Shown one piece after another: positions 1,564 through 19,753 of a DNA stretch of 20,000 bases. This DNA comes from an uncultured virus (IMG/VR IMGVR_UViG_3300027659_000029). Taxonomy: Duplodnaviria > Heunggongvirae > Uroviricota > Caudoviricetes. The position numbers were made by a program, and so were the translations under genes. The stretch is from the IMG/VR virus record IMGVR_UViG_3300027659_000029; one strand, written 5' to 3'. Within the stretch, counting starts at the first letter, position 1, and every line of letters begins with the position of its first letter. A model generated the notes under the pieces. The model made no database searches, was not told the origin of the DNA, and was given only the letters and a program-made list of their open reading frames with translations.

Positions 1564-4500
1564 TTATGATATTAGTAGTTCGTAATTTGTATCAACAATT
1601 TGTGTATACGGCTGTTTTGTTGCTATTGCGCTATCTGCGCCAGATTCATTTGCATAAAGAATGTAATTACCTGATGAATTCCCTGTTACTATGGCTTGTG
1701 TTGTATTTATTGCGGATAACTTTCTAATACCTCCCACTAATGGGAATTCATAATATCTTGATTTGACAGGATGCCAAAACATACCAAGAGTAACCCCATT
1801 CGCTTGTACATTATTACCAAATGTAGAATAATCAACGCCATTGTCAGCAACAAGTGTAATTATTCTATAACTACTTGCAAGTGTTGGATTTGCTGTTGAG
1901 GTATCAAAACCTCTAAGTTTCATACCGCCAGCTGGTGGCGCACCGCCTGCATACTCTTCACTAAATACATAAACACTTTTGCCGTCATAATTTATTTTAG
2001 ATAATGTTATTGGGTAACGTATTTGTGCAACTCCTGTGCCTACACCACCGCTAACACTACAAGTACCATCAACAGTCCCAACGGTATTACTAATTACATC
2101 AATTCCTATGTATTGAGCGGAATCTGTAATATCTGTTAAAGATGTTAAACTGCCTTTAAAATAGTATTTTTTTATAGCCCCAAGCCCAAATACATAAATT
2201 ACTTGAATATTTGTATATGTATTCCCCTCATATGTGTACGTTTCTGTATCAATGTTTATGTTGCCCCCAACAGATGAACCTATATAATCAAGACCCAATG
2301 CTTTTACATTCCAATTTGAACTTGTTGTTACTGTTCCAGATACATAATATACAAAATCAAGTCTTGATGCACCTGTATTGTATATTATAAAACTTGGTTG
2401 CCCATTTATAGTCCCCATTCTTTTTGATCCATATGGTTGATTAAATCTTGCAGCATTTCCCAAATTAGGGACACTTGCAATACCACCATCACAAGCTCCA
2501 GCCAATACATAATTTCTCCAATTTGCTCTTTCATCGCATTCAGTACTTCTTTCACGAATTAATTTACAAAATACACCACCGAATGTAACAAAATATATTG
2601 CAGGGTGACCATTTGTAATTTCATTTCTATCTACATAGATTGATGAAGGATAATAGTATGTTACAGTATCACCATATGTTGGAGTTGTTGGGGTTACAAT
2701 TGGCAAACTTGCATTTAAATTACCAGCAATTTGAAATACTTCTTTTGTAACTGTATTATATGCTCTAATGCACCCGTTGCCTTTTGCGTCAACATTGTTT
2801 ATATAAATATAATCACCATAATAAGGCAAATCATTTATTTGTGGATTATATCTATATGGATACATATACCTTTCTGAATAGTCTACTCTTGGGTATGATG
2901 ATGTTTTTTGTGTTGTTAACTTACACCCTTTGTTTGTTGTTGTTTCAATTATAAATGTACCAGTTTTTGATACCAAATCTCTTGCACATTGGCTATTTGC
3001 TGCCAGTGTATAATCATCACCACCTGCATTTGTATTATATGTTGCAGGTATTGTTGATTCTGAAATATTTATGTTGGCAATTGTATCGCCTGTTATTGTC
3101 GTATTATCATGTAATTGGAAGTCAACTATCTTATCTGATTTTGTAAAATATTTACTATTTAAAACAGCATAGTATGTACTCAATCTATTGACATCCATAA
3201 TTAAAGGTGTGCCGTTTACAATTACCGAACTGCTACATGTTTCGTATAACCAAACAACAACTGTACAAGAGCCATTCGTAGGCACATAGCTTGATATTAT
3301 ACCTGTTTCGTCAGGAGATAAGGAAAATGTACCATATACATTTGTTAAGTCTGAATTGGCATTTAAATCATCAACAAGCATTGATATTGATGTAACTGTT
3401 ATTGGCTCAAACGTAACAATATTACCCCCACAAATTGTAACTTGACTAAATGATAATGGATTTGTTTCTGTTGGTGGCAATCCAGTTTGGCTTATAACAA
3501 TTACATTTGTTTTACAAGGACAAGTATTTATACCTAATACTTCTTGCCAAGCTGCTACTGCACCTGCTGTGGAAGATATTGCATTTAAAATATTGTTTTG
3601 TAATATAGCAAAATTTACAGAAAGACACCAAGTTTTACTACATCCGTCTTGTGATGGAGTAAAGCTAAACCCACTTGTATTATCACATACATCTACTATT
3701 GTATTTTTTGCGGTTATATATATTACGCCATCTCCGCCTGTTGTAATATCAACAGCACACAAACCTGCCAATGTTTTCTCACCAAATGATATTGGGTTCT
3801 TAGTTATTTGTAACCCTTTTTGGCACTTGCAATCACAACCTAAAATATCTTGAATTTGTTTTACTATTTTTTCACTATTTTTCCCATTTGCTTCTTGAAG
3901 CCATGCCATCCCAAATAGCACTTCTACATCTTTAAGTTTTTCTTCCATTTGCTTACCTACCACACCGCCTTTTTCCGCAATTTCAAGTGACTGAGTATAA
4001 CAGCAAAGAAGAGTAGATAAAGCACCTGAGCAAGACACCTGTTCCGCCCAATTAGTAATATATGTGATGTCCATATAATTATGACAACTATCAATTTTAT
4101 ATCTTGCAGTTGTAATAACTTTCACTTGATATAGCCCTGTTATGCTACCATCTAAATCTTGTGAATATGGAACGTAATTGAATGTTTTTTGCTCAATGTA
4201 ATTGTCTGGGTATGTAAGTTTACCAACAAATGTTTTACTTTCAGGTGATAGCCCATTGTATTTAAAATTTGTTTGTTCCTTAATAACCATTTTAGCAGTA
4301 GTGCAGTTTGTATCAACCGAAATACAACCCTGTATATGATTATCAACTTCTAATCTTGGATCATAACAAACAGATACATTAAAAGAACCATCAACATAAC
4401 TAATTAAATCCAAAACATATCTATATTCTATGGTATAATTTCCAAAAAATAATTCACCTGATGAAGATAATGGGATGGTAATATCTGTTTCGCCCAAATT

Positions 4501-13193: not shown

Positions 13194-13224
13194 TATCTTT
13201 GTTTATTAATATTTAACAAAAGTA
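13194..13224. promoter_or_regulatory. Face-to-face overlapping promoters
   Basis: Plus TAtcTTTG at 13194-13201 and minus TActTTTG at 13217-13224, 15 nt apart, between divergent genes. Confidence 0.6.
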
Positions 13225-13562
13225 TGAGTTTAGAGCGAGATTTACAAATTATTGATGGCGTAAAGAAAAAAAGTTGTTTAACGGTGTCTGGGATAGAACG
13301 TAAATATAACATACCAAAAAATGTTTTACACAATACTCGCATAAATGGGGTATCTATCCCTGAAAAGCACAGAATAAAACTTTTAAATTATTTAATGGAA
13401 GAAGACATTAAACCAATTGATGATTGGAATAAACTTTCCGCAAAAAAAGTTTTAAAACACCAGTTTCCAAAATGGATAAAAAAATTAAAAGAATATTGTG
13501 TTTTAAAAAATATAACTATTCAAGAGTTAATTGATACTCATAGCCGTATTCCCCATGAATAA
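13224..13562 (+). CDS. Putative HTH transcriptional regulator
   Basis: 112 aa, basic. 'LTVSGIERKYNIPKNVLHN' is HTH-like, and there is a second helix-turn-like segment 'LKEYCVLKNITIQELI'. Confidence 0.6.
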   Translation: MSLERDLQIIDGVKKKSCLTVSGIERKYNIPKNVLHNTRINGVSIPEKHRIKLLNYLMEEDIKPIDDWNKLSAKKVLKHQFPKWIKKLKEYCVLKNITIQELIDTHSRIPHE

Positions 13563-14477: not shown

Positions 14478-16490
14478 TTAAAATGGTGGTGAATCATCAG
14501 AGCTTGTAAGGTAATCTAAATTATCTTTATTTTCAAACATTTTATTTAATGTTTGTTGACCATATTGACTTCTTAATAATTTTTCTGCATCCGTTAATGG
14601 ATTTTGATCTTGGAAATAAAATCTATTATCTTCCCACTTAAATATCCCATCTCTAAAATCACCAAGAAGACCCCCACCAGTTGCTCTTTTTTTATTCTTG
14701 CCTACTATTAATTTAAACTGTGGCTGATTTACTTGCTCTTTATAAAAACAAAACATATTATCCATCTTATTAGCCCATAAAGCACCGCCATTCAAATCAT
14801 AATATGTTGGTATTGGTAATGGTTTATTTTTTTCTGCATTTGTAGGTTTATTGGGGTGGGCAACAATGTTATATGAAATCTGATAAGATAGGGCAAACCT
14901 TTTTATTTTTGCAAACACAACTGACAAGTATTGGTCATCTCTTTGGAAAACACTACCTGTTTTATCAAGTTGATTAAATGGATCAACTACTACCGCATTC
15001 ACTCCTTTTTTGAGTATTAAATATTTAAACTTTTCGTGTACACTATCTAAATCGTGTTCGTTTTCTGGGTACACAAAAAATATATTATCTTTAATAAAAT
15101 CAATACCTTTTTGATATTCATTTTCTGTCATTTTATATAAATCATTTTTTGGATGTATTTGCTTACCTATATATACTTCTATTAATGAATTATAAAAATC
15201 TGTACTTGGATAATTCTCTGGTGAAAATATAGCAAACTTCCACTTTTCTAAAAACACTTTACATACTATTAAAAAATTAAGGAAAGTTGTTTTGCCTTGA
15301 TTTGCATACCCATACCAACAATTAACTTCGCCTAATTTCCACACAAATAATTCATCTAATTCTGGCATTCCTGTTGTTGACCCCATTCTTGATTTAGTAT
15401 GGTAACTTGTCCATAAATCATCAATCATATCATCTACAAAATGTATACCATCAATGTGAACGCCTACTGAATTTTTTACAAGATTTATTACAGATTCTTT
15501 CCCATTTTTAATAAGCACCTCATTAAAGTCTTTACTGCCTGTTTTTGAATAATCTACATACTTACATCTTTCAGCACCAAATCTTAAAATAAGTGCATCT
15601 CTCATTTCTATACCTTTTGTATCTCCATCTGTGGCAATAACAATTTCATCAATACCAAAAAAGTAATCGGCACAATTATCTAAAAAATCTAAATTAATAC
15701 TTGCACCATTTGGAACAGAAACAACACCCCATCCTGATAAATAACTAAGCATATTCATTTCTTCAGTAAATACAATCTCATCATCTGAAATTGTTTTTAA
15801 ATCATCCGCACTATATCCAGTCTTTTTTTGCTTACGATTAAACTCATTTTCGTCAATCATTTCTTTTCTTCTCAAATCTATCTTTTCGGTTATTAAGTTA
15901 TCTAATTTTTCCTTATTGACTTTATTACCAAATCCACATTCATAAGCACTCATGCAATCAATTTGACCTTCTGTTATTATGCATTTTTTTACTCCATTAA
16001 GAGAATTAATATTGTAAAATATAAGTTCAGCATCTTTTTCAAGTCTAAAATCTTTATCTCTTGAACGATATTGCACATTAACCAAATCTAAATCTCTAAA
16101 ATATGGAAAAGCAATGCATTTTTTATTAATCCACTCCCCAGTTTCTTTACTTGGGAAACTTTGCACTTTTTCGTAAACCATAAAGTGAGATATGGTGCTA
16201 TCACTCAAACCCCTTTCGTTTAAATATTTTTTACTATCTGTAATTTTTGCATCTTTAAGATACTCTTCACGGCTTAACTTTTTATATTCTTTTTTAGGGG
16301 TGTATTCCTTAACGGATCCCTTCCACCCACAATGATGACAATTGTATTGACCAGTATCAATATTCACACTAAGGCAATAATCTCTTTTATTTTTCCTTTC
16401 AGAACTGCATTTTGGGCAAATTGTTTTAACAGATCCGCTACTTCTTTTCAAGTTAATACCCAAAAATTCTAATTTGTTTTTAAAACTCAT
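14478..16490 (-). CDS. Bifunctional DNA primase-helicase (T7 gp4/Twinkle-like)
   Basis: Zn finger CPKC...CHHC, TOPRIM ITEGQID / SVPNGA / ATDGD, KDFNE, SF4 helicase Walker A GYANQGKTT, Walker B VVVDP, and VAHP. Confidence 0.93.
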   Translation of the reverse strand: MSFKNKLEFLGINLKRSSGSVKTICPKCSSERKNKRDYCLSVNIDTGQYNCHHCGWKGSVKEYTPKKEYKKLSREEYLKDAKITDSKKYLNERGLSDSTISHFMVYEKVQSFPSKETGEWINKKCIAFPYFRDLDLVNVQYRSRDKDFRLEKDAELIFYNINSLNGVKKCIITEGQIDCMSAYECGFGNKVNKEKLDNLITEKIDLRRKEMIDENEFNRKQKKTGYSADDLKTISDDEIVFTEEMNMLSYLSGWGVVSVPNGASINLDFLDNCADYFFGIDEIVIATDGDTKGIEMRDALILRFGAERCKYVDYSKTGSKDFNEVLIKNGKESVINLVKNSVGVHIDGIHFVDDMIDDLWTSYHTKSRMGSTTGMPELDELFVWKLGEVNCWYGYANQGKTTFLNFLIVCKVFLEKWKFAIFSPENYPSTDFYNSLIEVYIGKQIHPKNDLYKMTENEYQKGIDFIKDNIFFVYPENEHDLDSVHEKFKYLILKKGVNAVVVDPFNQLDKTGSVFQRDDQYLSVVFAKIKRFALSYQISYNIVAHPNKPTNAEKNKPLPIPTYYDLNGGALWANKMDNMFCFYKEQVNQPQFKLIVGKNKKRATGGGLLGDFRDGIFKWEDNRFYFQDQNPLTDAEKLLRSQYGQQTLNKMFENKDNLDYLTSSDDSPPF

Positions 16491-17299
16491 TCGATTGTGT
16501 CTTTAAATAGTTTTTTAAATTTCTCATATAGAGCCTCAAATTTGGCAGATTCTTCTTTTTCGATATGGAAGTACTCTTTTTCATTTATATCGCAGTAAAG
16601 GGCAAGTAGTGACCACACAGAGGCATCCTTACCTGTTTCCTGACACCAATTTGTCAAATATCTTGAAAATTCCTTTGTTGTTACCCGAATTCCACCATAT
16701 TCGTTCAAAATATTACCCCCAGAAATTATGATGCTTGTGTACTTTTTTTCGTAAATATCTTTCCTGTGATGCCATAACATTTTTTTATCAATTCCGTCTG
16801 AATGATTTAAAATTCTCAGTTCTGATGTTGAGATGTTGCTTTGGGGAAAGTCCTCAAGACTTGACCCCAAAGTAACATTTTCTTTATTTTCTTTTTCTTT
16901 TACTTTACTTCTATTTACTTTAGGGGTGTTACAAACGCTTTCGTAATGCGTTACATTTTTTGTATCTTGTTGATTTTCACGCCATTGTCTAATTCTTTCA
17001 GCGTTTTTTTCTTTTTTTATTTGGTACTTTTCACTAAAGTTTAGTAATTGTTTGTTGAAAGTTTCTCCATTGTTTGATGAAATTAACCCAATTTGCTCCA
17101 TAAATTCCCAACATTTTTTTAGTTTTTTACCTACTTTTAATTGAGATTTCAAAACAGAACTTTTTATAGGCTTTTCTTGTTTTCCAATTTTTTCTAATAT
17201 TACATAAAACAATCCTACACCTTCGTAACCAAAGTGTAAAAATAACTCAGATACCTTTTCATCATCGAAGGCGGATGTATCGTGTAGGTAATACTTCAT
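16487..17299 (-). CDS. Replication initiator / replisome organizer (DUF4373/Lin1244-like N-terminus)
   Basis: N-terminus 'MKYYLHD..AFDDEKV..L...FGYEGVGLFYVILE', an R/K linker and low-complexity KVKEKENKE. Coupled to the primase-helicase by an ATGA overlap. Confidence 0.8.
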   Translation of the reverse strand: MKYYLHDTSAFDDEKVSELFLHFGYEGVGLFYVILEKIGKQEKPIKSSVLKSQLKVGKKLKKCWEFMEQIGLISSNNGETFNKQLLNFSEKYQIKKEKNAERIRQWRENQQDTKNVTHYESVCNTPKVNRSKVKEKENKENVTLGSSLEDFPQSNISTSELRILNHSDGIDKKMLWHHRKDIYEKKYTSIIISGGNILNEYGGIRVTTKEFSRYLTNWCQETGKDASVWSLLALYCDINEKEYFHIEKEESAKFEALYEKFKKLFKDTIE

Positions 17300-17311
17300 T
17301 TTATAAAATAA

Positions 17312-17441
17312 TTACCGAAGGGTAGTGGTGCAGACAAAAAAATGACTTATGAGAATCAAAGATTTGAACACTACCCTTCGGTAAGTTAATTTAAACTGTA
17401 AATAATTTATTGGAATTCATAATTTTATTAATTGTCTGCAC
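17312..17441 (-). ncRNA. Structured 5' leader RNA (two interleaved inverted repeats) of the initiator operon
   Basis: Perfect 16-bp IR 17312-17327/17369-17384 and perfect 10-bp IR 17328-17337/17432-17441. The second extends imperfectly in register to 17328-17358/17411-17441. Confidence 0.65.
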
Positions 17442-17443
17442 GT

Positions 17444-17474
17444 CAAAAGTAATACGTTGTATTTTATTCTGCAA
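17444..17474 (-). promoter_or_regulatory. Bacteroidota sigma70 promoter of the replication operon
   Basis: TTG at 17472-17474, 20-nt spacer, TActTTTG at 17444-17451. Confidence 0.75.
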
Positions 17475-17486
17475 GTATTTTATTAT

Positions 17487-17954
17487 TTATTTCTGTTGCG
17501 TTTTATTTCTTGCCGATAATTGAGCCACTATTTCGTTAAATTTTGAGTATAAATTGGTAAGAGATAATGCTTGTTTGTAAAAAGAAATAGTAATTGCAGA
17601 ACGATAATAAAGTTCTTGTTGTGTGATGCTTGTGTGTAAATCCCAAATCCCATTTTTTCGTCCCAAGTATCTTGTTTTTAATGTCTTATTGAGTCTTTTT
17701 AAGTTTATAGCTTCTATTTGTGTGAATTCTGGTTTATTCCCCGTAATCTCCTCGTAAAACACAACCCATTGTGTTACTAATTCGCTCCAATAAGGAGTAG
17801 AATTATCTGGTTTAAATACATTATTAAAATATTCTTGTAAAGACTCAGTAATGGGATTTAATAATTTAGGATCAATAAAAAGACCGTGTGATTCTAAAAT
17901 ATATTTAATCCCTTCATTGAATGAAATTTTTGATTTTTTTGTTTTTAATTTCAT
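17487..17954 (-). CDS. Hypothetical protein, possibly related to initiator C-terminal domains
   Basis: 155 aa, helical; ends 'LTNLYSKFNEIVAQ'. Confidence 0.65.
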   Translation of the reverse strand: MKLKTKKSKISFNEGIKYILESHGLFIDPKLLNPITESLQEYFNNVFKPDNSTPYWSELVTQWVVFYEEITGNKPEFTQIEAINLKRLNKTLKTRYLGRKNGIWDLHTSITQQELYYRSAITISFYKQALSLTNLYSKFNEIVAQLSARNKTQQK

Positions 17955-17965
17955 AAATGTAATAA

Positions 17966-18325
17966 TTATTGCTCTTCAACTTTGAATGTACCATCCAATA
18001 TATGACCTGCACACTCTTCAAGAATACGCCTTTGTTCGTCTGTCATATTTGATGACATTGTAATAATATTTTGGAACGATAGTGTTTCCCAATTATCCAT
18101 TACTTCTTTTTTTATTATATCGGCATACTTTGTAGATACAGATAAATAAATATCTTTTTCTACACCACGAAGTCTACTTATTATCATCAAAAATTTATTT
18201 TTTGAATTCCCCTGTAACGCCTCTTCTATAATAATCATTTCCGCATTTTTAATAGAATTTGCTGTATTCATCAATATTTGTTTGATATACATTGCGGTAA
18301 AATTGCTTTTATTTATTGTGTCCAT
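17966..18325 (-). CDS. Hypothetical protein
   Basis: ORF track start is 18370; ATG 18325 (MDTINK) has an A-rich leader and no overlap with the upstream gene. Confidence 0.6.
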   Translation of the reverse strand: MDTINKSNFTAMYIKQILMNTANSIKNAEMIIIEEALQGNSKNKFLMIISRLRGVEKDIYLSVSTKYADIIKKEVMDNWETLSFQNIITMSSNMTDEQRRILEECAGHILDGTFKVEEQ

Positions 18326-18357
18326 ATTTTTTTTAATGTTTTTAAATAATGTTATTA

Positions 18358-18582
18358 TTAACTTACCCATTGAAAATCTCTCCTATCTTCAAGCAATTCA
18401 TCTTTGTCAACAATATTTTTTTTTACTCTTGTATTTTTACCTCTACCACTTTTACATGATATGCCTTCTTTGTGAAGAACTTGGTCAATTTGATTTAATG
18501 AGCAATCAAACATTGCTTTAAACTCATTTCTTGTGTGTTTTAGGTGGTTCTTAATAAGAAACTCTTTGTCTTTTGGTAACAT
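18358..18582 (-). CDS. Small basic protein, possible HTH
   Basis: 74 aa; 'TRNEFKAMFDCSLNQIDQVLHKEGI' is HTH-like. Confidence 0.55.
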   Translation of the reverse strand: MLPKDKEFLIKNHLKHTRNEFKAMFDCSLNQIDQVLHKEGISCKSGRGKNTRVKKNIVDKDELLEDRRDFQWVS

Positions 18583-18597
18583 AATTATTAATTGGTT

Positions 18598-18843
18598 TTA
18601 TTTTTTTTTAATTGAAATTTCGCAATGTACGTCTTGCATTTGCATGCCCAATTTGTCAGCCACCAATTTAATTATACTGATGTGCATTAATGTTTGGCTA
18701 TCCCTTTCAAGCATTCTTCCCAATCCAGCAGGATTAGTATGTAATACATTGCAAATGCTTATATTTAATTCAATTTTAGAATTAATTTCCTCTTTAACCA
18801 TTTTTGTAAACGATCTATTTAATCTTATCCTTTTTTTTGGCAT
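18598..18843 (-). CDS. Cro/XRE-like HTH regulator
   Basis: 81 aa; 'ISICNVLHTNPAGLGRML...IIKLVADKLGM'. First gene of the leftward operon at a divergent intergenic region. Confidence 0.6.
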   Translation of the reverse strand: MPKKRIRLNRSFTKMVKEEINSKIELNISICNVLHTNPAGLGRMLERDSQTLMHISIIKLVADKLGMQMQDVHCEISIKKK

Positions 18844-18935
18844 TTTTTATGCAAAGCAAATACATAAAATTCATTTTTGCAAATTATTTTACAAATAAAA
18901 AGTAAAAAAAATTTTTTTTGTAACAAATGAATTTA

Positions 18936-18943
18936 TAAATTTG
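18936..18943 (+). promoter_or_regulatory. -7 element TAaaTTTG for the rightward early operon
   Basis: Ends 6 nt upstream of ATG 18950. Confidence 0.55.
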
Positions 18944-18949
18944 CACATT

Positions 18950-19753
18950 ATGAAGAACATACACTTAATACCAACATCACAACCAAGTAGGTTATTATGT
19001 AATCACACATTAAAATCATTTTGTTTTCAAAAAGAAGAAAATGGAATGTTTGTTAATGACGGCAAAGTTAGTGGAGCAAGTTTTTGGTCTATTGAAAAAG
19101 CAAAAAATAATGGATTTAATCCTCAACACATCTATATCACTAATGATGAAGTAATTAAAGCAGTTGATTATTTTTGGAAACCCGATTGTAATATGATTTT
19201 CAAAGCAGAGTACACACCACATAAAGGTTGTGAAAAAGTCATATTGACAACAGACCAAGACTTAATTGCTGATGGTGTACAAGCTATTGATGATGAGTTT
19301 TTAGAATGGTTTGTTAAGAACCCAAGTTGTGAGAGGGTTGAGATTGACAAAAATTGGAATTACCCATTAGAAAAAAGTTGGGAATATAAATTAAGAATCA
19401 TTCCAAAAGAAGAACATACTAAGCAGATTAAGTGTTATTGTGGTCACACAACAACTTGTGATTGTAGTCCATTAGAAGAACCTAAACAATTTACTCCTGA
19501 AATATTAGTAGATTTAAAACAGGGTTTAGATAACGCTATACAAAAAAGTAACCCACTGTTTCCAAACTATAAACATTTGAATAGACAAGAAACACTTGAA
19601 GAAGCTAATTGGAAAGTTTTAGGTACAAAGAATGATACATTTTACAATGGTGCTAAATGGCAACAAGAAGATATTTTAGAGCTATTAAAAGTAAATGGAT
19701 ATGAAGATGAACCTATATTTGATTTAATTACTGAACAATTTAAAAAGAAATAA
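18950..19753 (+). CDS. Mosaic phage hypothetical protein ('QETLEEA' family)
   Basis: Start at ATG 18950 (MKNIHLIPT). Modules: QHIYITNDE, KVILTTDQDLIADGVQAIDDEFLEWFVKNPSCE, CYCGHTTTCDC, QETLEEA and GAKWQQE. Confidence 0.75.
   Translation: MKNIHLIPTSQPSRLLCNHTLKSFCFQKEENGMFVNDGKVSGASFWSIEKAKNNGFNPQHIYITNDEVIKAVDYFWKPDCNMIFKAEYTPHKGCEKVILTTDQDLIADGVQAIDDEFLEWFVKNPSCERVEIDKNWNYPLEKSWEYKLRIIPKEEHTKQIKCYCGHTTTCDCSPLEEPKQFTPEILVDLKQGLDNAIQKSNPLFPNYKHLNRQETLEEANWKVLGTKNDTFYNGAKWQQEDILELLKVNGYEDEPIFDLITEQFKKK

Follow-up and report, generated by a model that had tools for sequence, protein, structure and literature searches.

A candidate ribosome-gated fold-back leader heading replication operons of Bacteroidota-type phages

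To our knowledge, it has not been worked out how Bacteroidota phages meter their replication initiators. The question is raised by the DNA analyzed here, a 20,000-nucleotide stretch from an uncultured tailed phage (hereafter the window), in which a spacer of 187 nt ahead of a putative initiator gene contains a promoter, a small upstream ORF (uORF) and two crossing pairs of complementary arms, all on the minus strand. How could a leader of this kind set the output of the initiator?

The gene behind the spacer (16487..17299, minus strand) encodes a 270-aa Lin1244_N protein (PF14297, E = 3.5e-6, residues 3–44) with a weak match to phrog_2562 "replication initiation protein" (E = 0.0016). Its stop codon is overlapped by the gene for a 670-aa primase-helicase (14478..16490, minus strand; phrog_239, E = 1e-71; Toprim_2; weak DnaB_C match), and the terminase and primase-helicase genes of the window fit a phage. 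A relative from another initiator clade is 46% identical to an annotated Porphyromonas phage initiator, behind which that phage encodes a DnaC-like loader. The name initiator thus rests on annotation, namely the Lin1244_N match, the weak PHROG match and the Porphyromonas phage relative. No relatives of the window initiator were found among annotated phages and plasmids, nor was a relative found in the PDB. Initiators 71 to 72% identical to it are encoded in L044 and L045, from bins labeled Syntrophaceae and Deltaproteobacteria; these may be misbinned phage contigs, since the upstream region of L045 matches the viral contig L031. Within the linker region of the initiator gene, a 14-bp inverted repeat (16833-16878, 93%) was observed as a possible origin feature. 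Elsewhere in the window, a strict Bacteroidota promoter on the plus strand (13173) overlaps with a convergent one on the minus strand (13247) around a small plus-strand ORF (13224-13562), and a divergent spacer (18843-18941) separates an 81-aa minus-strand ORF from a 270-aa plus-strand ORF, for neither of which Pfam, PHROGs or NCBIfam gave a repressor-family match.

The leader promoter (17474-17444) is of the Bacteroidota primary-sigma type, with a TTG −33 element (17474-17472), 20 intervening nucleotides and the −7 box TACTTTTG (17451-17444). It is one of five strict Bacteroidota promoter boxes in the window and fits the consensus described in the available text of PMC7366714; this fit is the sole basis for assigning a Bacteroidota host. 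The transcript would start at about 17441-17439, and hence arm A (17441-17432) would form the 5′ end of the leader and overlap the region where ribosomes load onto the uORF. The uORF initiation region (17431-17417) has A at −3 and −6, with further A at −12 and −13 inside arm A, whereas the initiator has two of these four. It also contains a 6-nt strand over the uORF ATG whose partner lies at 17352-17347. The uORF itself (17420-17391) comprises nine codons (MNSNKLFTV) and stops 6 nt ahead of arm B (17384-17369), the 5′ strand of a 16-bp hairpin. Its ATG lies 23 nt past the −7 box, near the modal 5′ UTR of 23 nt given for B. thetaiotaomicron in the same source (PMC7366714). The 41-nt B/B′ loop contains, toward its 3′ end, the A′ extension that pairs over the uORF ATG (17352-17347) and the A′ seed (17337-17328), which directly abuts arm B′ (17327-17312); the initiator ATG (17299) follows after 12 nt. 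The AU-rich tail has five T among the eight nucleotides past the last G-C pair. It is part of a segment (17316-17287) in which the 3′ end of B′ can pair with the first initiator codons in an alternative helix, termed C, predicted in the window and in the related contig L048; as a feature of the whole family, helix C was rejected after folding across leaders. Contigs from three of four DNA runs span the leader (X5: 17306 to 17456) and carry no variant letters. There is no second copy of the leader within the window.

These parts had been proposed by a sequence-only reading of the window, and our recheck of the sequence found promoter, arms, uORF and the 12-nt gap at the places given there, together with the mutually crossing, perfect A/A′ (10 bp) and B/B′ (16 bp) pairings and the GC-rich arms in an AT-rich spacer (50% GC in the arms versus 17% elsewhere). 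Its further claim that A/A′ extends in register over 31 nt stood for the 10-bp core and the 6-bp helix over the uORF ATG (19 of 25 positions paired) and failed for the full length, which pairs at 21 of 31 positions, with only two pairs in the last 6 nt.

The 16-bp stem is far beyond chance: among 20,000 dinucleotide-shuffled versions of the spacer, a single one contained a perfect stem of at least 16 bp, as did one of 200 shuffled versions of the whole window. Crossing pairs of stems, each at least 9 bp long, were obtained in 105 of 20,000 spacer shuffles. The leader region folds with z = −4.1, and the A/A′ duplex was calculated at −15.0 kcal/mol for the core and −21.5 kcal/mol with the extension. 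When folding of the growing transcript was followed, A/A′ together with the helix over the ATG was best once A′ had been made (−26.0 at 17328), B/B′ was best at 17312 (−31.3), A/A′ plus helix C over the initiator AUG at 17285 (−34.9), and B/B′ again at 17270 (−37.8). The window leader is thus predicted to be bistable, with two near-equal folds of which A/A′ forms first. In these models, alternative folds in the order of synthesis fit the data as well as a stable pseudoknot in which both helices coexist.

Two metagenome contigs (L048 and L049) encode initiators 89 to 90% identical to that of the window in the same gene order, and their leaders are 76% identical to the window's. In the alignment of the three leaders, all 88 scorable cells of the three helices were paired. 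Double-sided changes affect two pairs in A/A′ and one in B/B′, and one B/B′ pair becomes G-U; the helix over the uORF ATG is invariant in all three, with one pair gapped in two of them. Double changes at this level were reached in 19 of 500 shuffles, and three rows from two lineages amount to a description rather than statistics. L048 and L049 keep both promoter boxes while the intervening sequence differs, and they keep uORF length and stop position while three of nine residues differ (MNTYTLFTV versus MNSNKLFTV). The sequence-only reading had named the A-B-A′-B′ order and covariation in homologues as its test, and these close homologues retain both helices through compensatory changes. Beyond the TAA of the uORF, the frame in the window continues without a stop until 1 nt short of the initiator ATG, but by eye the register is lost in L048; ribosomal read-through or frameshifting past the uORF stop was therefore discarded.

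More distant relatives of the initiator were collected as 103 loci and reduced to 71 upstream regions plus the window. Duplicates (identical last 100 nt), regions shorter than about 120 nt or with an unclear upstream end (L063, L065, L070, L074, L085, L087, L098, and L101) and weak or partial matches (L046, L105, and L108) were dropped. The regions were divided by the distance to the upstream ORF, blind to structure, into 32 spacers plus that of the window (≥114 nt, or a contig end that bears a promoter) and 39 spacer-less controls (gap ≤38 nt). A duplex-based detector of the A-B-A′B′ arrangement was applied to the last 150 nt, and a region was positive at a score of at least 23.5 that also exceeded all 20 of its shuffles. 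Positives were 23 of the 32 homologous spacers, plus the window, versus none of the 39 controls, counts that are not fully independent because several leaders are closely related; some positives are interrelated (L048/L049, L036/L079), and the controls include about a dozen phages that are nearly identical. Low scores that nevertheless exceeded those of the shuffles were obtained for one spacer (L069, 20.0) and one control (L059, 13.7). In a second initiator clade (19 loci less four duplicates and one that was too short), 7 of 10 spacers beat all 20 shuffles versus none of four spacer-less regions, and double changes in A/A′ are visible between L276/L277 and L278/L280. Shorter variants of about 80 to 105 nt with crossing arms were seen in L021, L024, L059, L284, and L288; L021 and L024 have an extra 5′ hairpin.

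L048 and L049 aside, these leaders are 44 to 58% identical to the window's, which is near shuffle level, and the shared property is how each leader pairs with itself. With B′ placed by folding without the 5′ end, and so independently of A, the 5′ end of a leader paired with its own loop at −18.8 kcal/mol as compared with −9.4 ± 3.5 kcal/mol for the loops of other leaders; the cognate partner was best in 19 of 24 cases by row and in 14 of 24 by column. The gap between A′ and B′ ranged from −3 to +4 nt across the 24 detector positives. Single helix mismatches, read on the mRNA strand of 37 leaders, were G-T in 18 cases, A-C in two and others in five, and this asymmetry of G-T over A-C argues for an RNA structure on the sense strand. 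The leader is real and conserved, a member of a class in Bacteroidota-type phages that is defined by its architecture, and conservation across the family supports the earlier proposal of an RNA-level leader with a uORF ahead of an initiator and primase-helicase operon.

Features of the uORF and of the hairpin tail were scored in 38 of 39 leaders, as L287 gave no usable fold; the 38 include L075, L286, and L292, which were weak or nonsignificant in the detector, and exclude L021 and L024, in which no ATG follows the promoter. In 36 of the 38, the uORF starts within A or no more than 5 nt from it. In 22 leaders, the uORF stop overlaps the downstream ATG or is directly adjacent to it; it falls inside the hairpin in 9, lies no more than 10 nt ahead of B in 4 (the window included) and lies beyond the downstream ATG in 3; none stops far before B (uORFs of fewer than three codons were skipped in this scoring, which affects L071). 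The uORF frame was open to 10 nt before B in all 32 testable leaders (21.3 expected), and in 17 of 26 (6.1 expected) the stop lay no more than 4 nt from the downstream ATG. Because the uORF peptides are unrelated across the family, it is translation itself that seems to be kept. At least six T among the eight nucleotides past the last G-C pair, the intrinsic-terminator trait of a GC-rich stem followed by a U-run, were found in 17 of 38 leaders versus 4 of 183 control windows and 2.8% of shuffles. With its five T and 41-nt loop, the window hairpin was not called in a simple terminator scan.

Translation in Bacteroidota begins without Shine–Dalgarno pairing. It is set by A at −3, neighboring adenines and low structure, according to the accessible part of PMC6847099. 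The 15 nt before the start had an A content of 0.44 for the uORFs (n = 33) and 0.43 for leaderless initiators (n = 28), as against 0.22 A and 0.49 T for genes behind a leader. Some uORF starts deviate from the common pattern. In L278 and L280, about 114 nt before position 3001, a 7-codon uORF starts with TTG instead of ATG, and the aligned ATG ORF in L276/L277 has 28 codons. The uORFs of L075, L093, and L104 look leaderless, with arm A within the first codons, since their ATG lies about 4 nt past the −7 box (in L093, just after a TATAAT-type box).

The sequence-only reading had described the leader as controlling the replication initiator, with the primase-helicase as part of the operon, yet the leader is not tied to the initiator alone. 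The leader often stands one gene further up: 10 of 33 genes upstream of leaderless initiators were preceded by one (score >23 and above all 15 shuffles), among them genes for HNH proteins (L032, L064, L076, and L082), a GIY-YIG-like protein (L107), an RNase H-like protein (L096) and unknown proteins. L005 has one leader ahead of a GIY-YIG gene and another ahead of the initiator. The leader heads the replication operon and not the initiator as such. HNH or GIY-YIG genes occur repeatedly between leader and initiator (L032, L064, L076, L082, L107, and L005), as if homing endonucleases inserted behind the leader and used its low-output control. The second-clade initiator also matched cultured Porphyromonas and Flavobacterium phages, in which the initiator gene is not immediately preceded by a leader. 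An unannotated gap before an Apyc1-like gene in Porphyromonas phage005b (L295, PP754928.1, 1181-1342) gave a high detector score. It reads as a small unannotated ORF with cysteine codons and a repeated palindrome, lacks a promoter and was left uncounted.

As to function, we favor, with slightly less than even confidence, a cis-acting switch in which a ribosome gates the folding back of the leader at the head of the phage replication operon. Its functional steps are proposed from sequence comparison and folding. The transcript would present A, the uORF, B, A′ and B′ in this order. A ribosome that occupies the uORF before A′ emerges, about 90 to 115 nt into the transcript, would cover A and thereby set the ON state. 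In most relatives, this ribosome would pass through B..B′, prevent the terminator-like hairpin and reach the downstream ATG by the overlap of stop and start. If no ribosome has loaded, A′ would fold onto A and the uORF AUG, the uORF would be silenced and the OFF state would result. The expected outcome is a low, translation-dependent output of initiator. This polarity, with uORF translation as ON and the helix over the uORF start as OFF, would follow from the course of the uORF through the terminator-like hairpin onto a weak downstream start in the family. The output step is least certain in the window, where the uORF ends 6 nt before B and the U-tail is weak. There, the terminating ribosome might delay or loosen B/B′; alternatively, A/A′ might free B′ to bury the initiator AUG in helix C, and the output may then be helix C instead of termination. 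Both options would keep the same overall ON/OFF logic.

Several results count against such a cis switch. In equilibrium folding, the accessibility of the downstream start was nearly equal with A blocked (0.47) and with B blocked (0.45, n = 24 leaders), so that occlusion of that start is unsupported family-wide; in the window, the values for the two blocked states were 0.22 versus 0.34. The window tail has only five T, and a ribosome at the uORF stop is predicted to cover too few bases of B to open the stem: with up to 3 nt of B covered, 13 bp remain, and the fold flips only when 9 nt are covered. L021 and L024 have crossing arms with no ATG after the promoter, and a purely cis design cannot sense the copy number of the phage.

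The main rival, a trans-acting input to the same circuit, we consider possible but clearly less probable than cis action alone. A short leader RNA, produced either by termination past B′ or by cleavage in the stretch that separates the uORF from B, would accumulate as a B-loop-B′ hairpin that exposes A′, bind new transcripts at their 5′ end and block their uORF. The leader would then act as its own diffusible repressor, allowing a burst in a naive cell and a later shut-off, with phage-specific immunity or copy control like that by the P4 CI RNA. The fact that an initiator needs a dose sensor, the U-runs after B′ in 17 of 38 leaders and the leader-specific A/A′ sequences would suit this role, as would the loop of the isolated B..B′ piece, in which 7 of 10 A′ bases were predicted to be mostly unpaired. 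An uncut leader RNA, however, would titrate A′ with its own A, and trans action would therefore require processing. A second copy of A lies at the downstream ATG in L035 (15-nt repeat) and, by eye, in L107, L287, and L289, recalling seqA/seqC as described in the available text of PMC4825925. The window lacks such a copy, and its A′ ranked 14/26 in pairing with the initiator start; only 4 of 26 leaders ranked first, and a general pairing of A′ with the initiator start was rejected. None of six upstream genes with an HTH/RHH-type Pfam match (L004, L013, L016, L038, L047, and L062; two matches below cut-off) was preceded by a leader, as though a small repressor took the place of the RNA leader there; this contrast is small and only suggestive, and the HTH/RHH genes may be mid-operon. 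Carried further, the trans reading would imply that Bacteroidota phages use leader RNAs free of any conserved sequence as RNA-only repressors. As terminated or processed hairpins with a phage-specific seed exposed in the loop, these would silence the uORF starts of new transcripts in trans and replace a small repressor protein as the replication dose sensor, with a freely evolving address of 10 to 25 nt defining immunity groups, a generalization that we hold at the same low level of expectation.

The polarity of the circuit could also be the opposite. In a classical attenuator, A/A′ would be an antiterminator that traps B; an untranslated uORF would give read-through and a ribosome on the uORF termination. 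The order of synthesis is compatible with this, as A′ is synthesized ahead of B′ and, in the 24 positives, adjoins the top of B/B′ or overlaps with it, and the 16-bp helix would presumably wind poorly in a closed loop with its 3′ end held by the polymerase; the uORF of the window is also short. Yet 22 of 38 uORFs cross the hairpin and end on a downstream ATG with an A-poor, U-rich start, an arrangement that is sensible only if uORF translation means ON, and uORFs of 28 to 35 codons and of 7 codons coexist within one subfamily (L276/L277 versus L278/L280). We therefore regard the opposite polarity as improbable.

Less probable still is a literal repZ/repA-type system, in which a separate antisense RNA would compete with an activating pseudoknot. 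The sequence-only reading had drawn this analogy, to which the presence of a uORF, crossing helices and an initiator lends itself, and had called for a search for an antisense transcript. The corresponding promoter scan found strict antisense promoters in none of 26 leaders and loose ones in 5 of 26 leaders versus 16 of 39 controls, with none in the window leader, whereas strict sense promoters were found in 14 of 26 leaders versus none of 39 controls. The 18:2 ratio of G-T to A-C mismatches favors structure on the sense strand only, and the crossing helix covers the start of the uORF itself (36 of 38 leaders) rather than opening that of the initiator, so the analogy did not hold in its specifics. 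That the element is an ordinary leaky terminator or RNA-stabilizing hairpin with incidental 5′ pairing, or a DNA structure near a replication origin, is equally improbable: a lone 10-bp stem is unremarkable (1475 of 20,000 spacer shuffles, 7%), but compensatory A/A′ changes (window/L048/L049 and L276-L280), cognate specificity, selection for an open uORF and the sense-strand G-U bias argue against it.

The design was rare elsewhere. An exact search for arm B in viral contigs gave five loci, none of them homologous, and a two-arm pattern for the B/B′ core gave 37 loci, which on inspection all lacked the leader design. The 0.98 Mb surrounding primase-helicase relatives contained 150 promoter-ORF spacers, of which four scored higher than all 25 of their shuffles, and only L199 and L213 have the leader design, one of them preceding a Lin1244_N gene. 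PF14297 loci, present in 19 of 301 genomes, were mostly coupled to upstream genes, and no leader was recognized there. No promoter-anchored leader of this design occurred among the listed ORF6N genes in genomes of one phylum sample, where high scores, taken without a shuffle control, fell in GC-rich rows.

The sequence-only reading had recognized no named family, in line with the Rfam 15 search, which gave no credible match up to E = 10 in 16800-19200 of the window and no match at gathering score in 20 related loci. No published description of the design was found in full-text literature outside subscription journals, including the available text of PMC2864571, and the portions available of PMC12360218 and of the Minerva preprint (bioRxiv 2026.09.22.753630) contain nothing on this leader element. 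The supplements of PMC8040213, as far as accessible, list a candidate (HMP2_6669) of 122 nt with few Bacteroidetes instances and DUF4373 twice among the nearby domains; it could be a member of the leader class, some members of which may thus already be catalogued. Apparently, the class as such is uncatalogued, while its type of control, uORF-coupled RNA control of replication genes, is known. Since conservation is limited to the architecture, RNA catalogues built on sequence would overlook such leaders, which may be common yet unannotated. The class offers a concrete, testable circuit for the control of Bacteroidota phage initiators. If it acted in trans, it would also be a candidate immunity or copy-control system and a natural collection of RNA switches, orthogonal to one another, for use in Bacteroides and Flavobacterium.

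Among known systems, the leaders of ColIb-P9 repY-repZ and IncB repB-repA share with it a leader-peptide ORF, long-range crossing helices and a replication initiator. According to the text available of PMC4705826, the ColIb-P9 pseudoknot forms after the stop of the leader peptide and activates rep, and in both plasmids this activating pseudoknot competes with a separately transcribed Inc antisense RNA. The leader described here, in contrast, would mask the start of its uORF, and no antisense promoter was found; because the crossing helix covers the uORF's own start, it should inhibit. The repZ-type pseudoknot at the initiator start also has no counterpart, as A′ lacks specific pairing to the initiator start of the window.

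The P4 CI system (seqA/CI/seqC, kil), as described in PMC4825925 and PMC10111431, resembles the proposed circuit in that premature termination within a structured leader governs the replication genes of the phage itself. There, too, the inhibitory sequence lies in the same transcript as its upstream target, with no gene on the opposite strand, and translation through the region prevents termination. As with P4 CI and P1 C4, A′ is complementary to an upstream target, A, within one transcript. Unlike in P4, the uORF start precedes the inhibitory hairpin and lies right at the target, and the leaders lack a conserved sequence scaffold; trans action and processing are here only candidates. The second downstream target of these systems (seqC in P4, a2b2 in P1) is absent from the window, clear in L035 and seen in few others. 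Relatives of P4 CI are detected by the Rfam C4 and isrK models, according to the available text of PMC10111431, whereas our leader matched none of the C4, c4-related and isrK models. Another parallel is the Gifsy-1 prophage leader isrK-orf45-anrP (PMC4825925), which adopts alternative folds, occurs either as a terminated small RNA or at the 5′ end of an mRNA, and carries a uORF whose translation is coupled to that of the downstream gene. However, the short IsrK activates in trans, whereas the loop described here is predicted to repress, and part order and host phylum differ. The FopS sRNAs of Bacteroides have a conserved R1 sequence in a single-stranded 5′ part, a terminator and many copies per genome (PMC11697453, available text). 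The leaders of the present family, in contrast, share no conserved sequence and have no Rfam match.

The leader of the window differs from CopA and Sok, which are transcribed from the opposite strand, from C4, whose place is upstream of icd, and from hok, where fold-back uses the far 3′ end of the mRNA. In P1 C4-icd-ant, R1 CopA-tap-repA, and hok/sok, an RNA blocks a small upstream ORF that must be translated for the downstream gene, and the same would apply to the leader described here.
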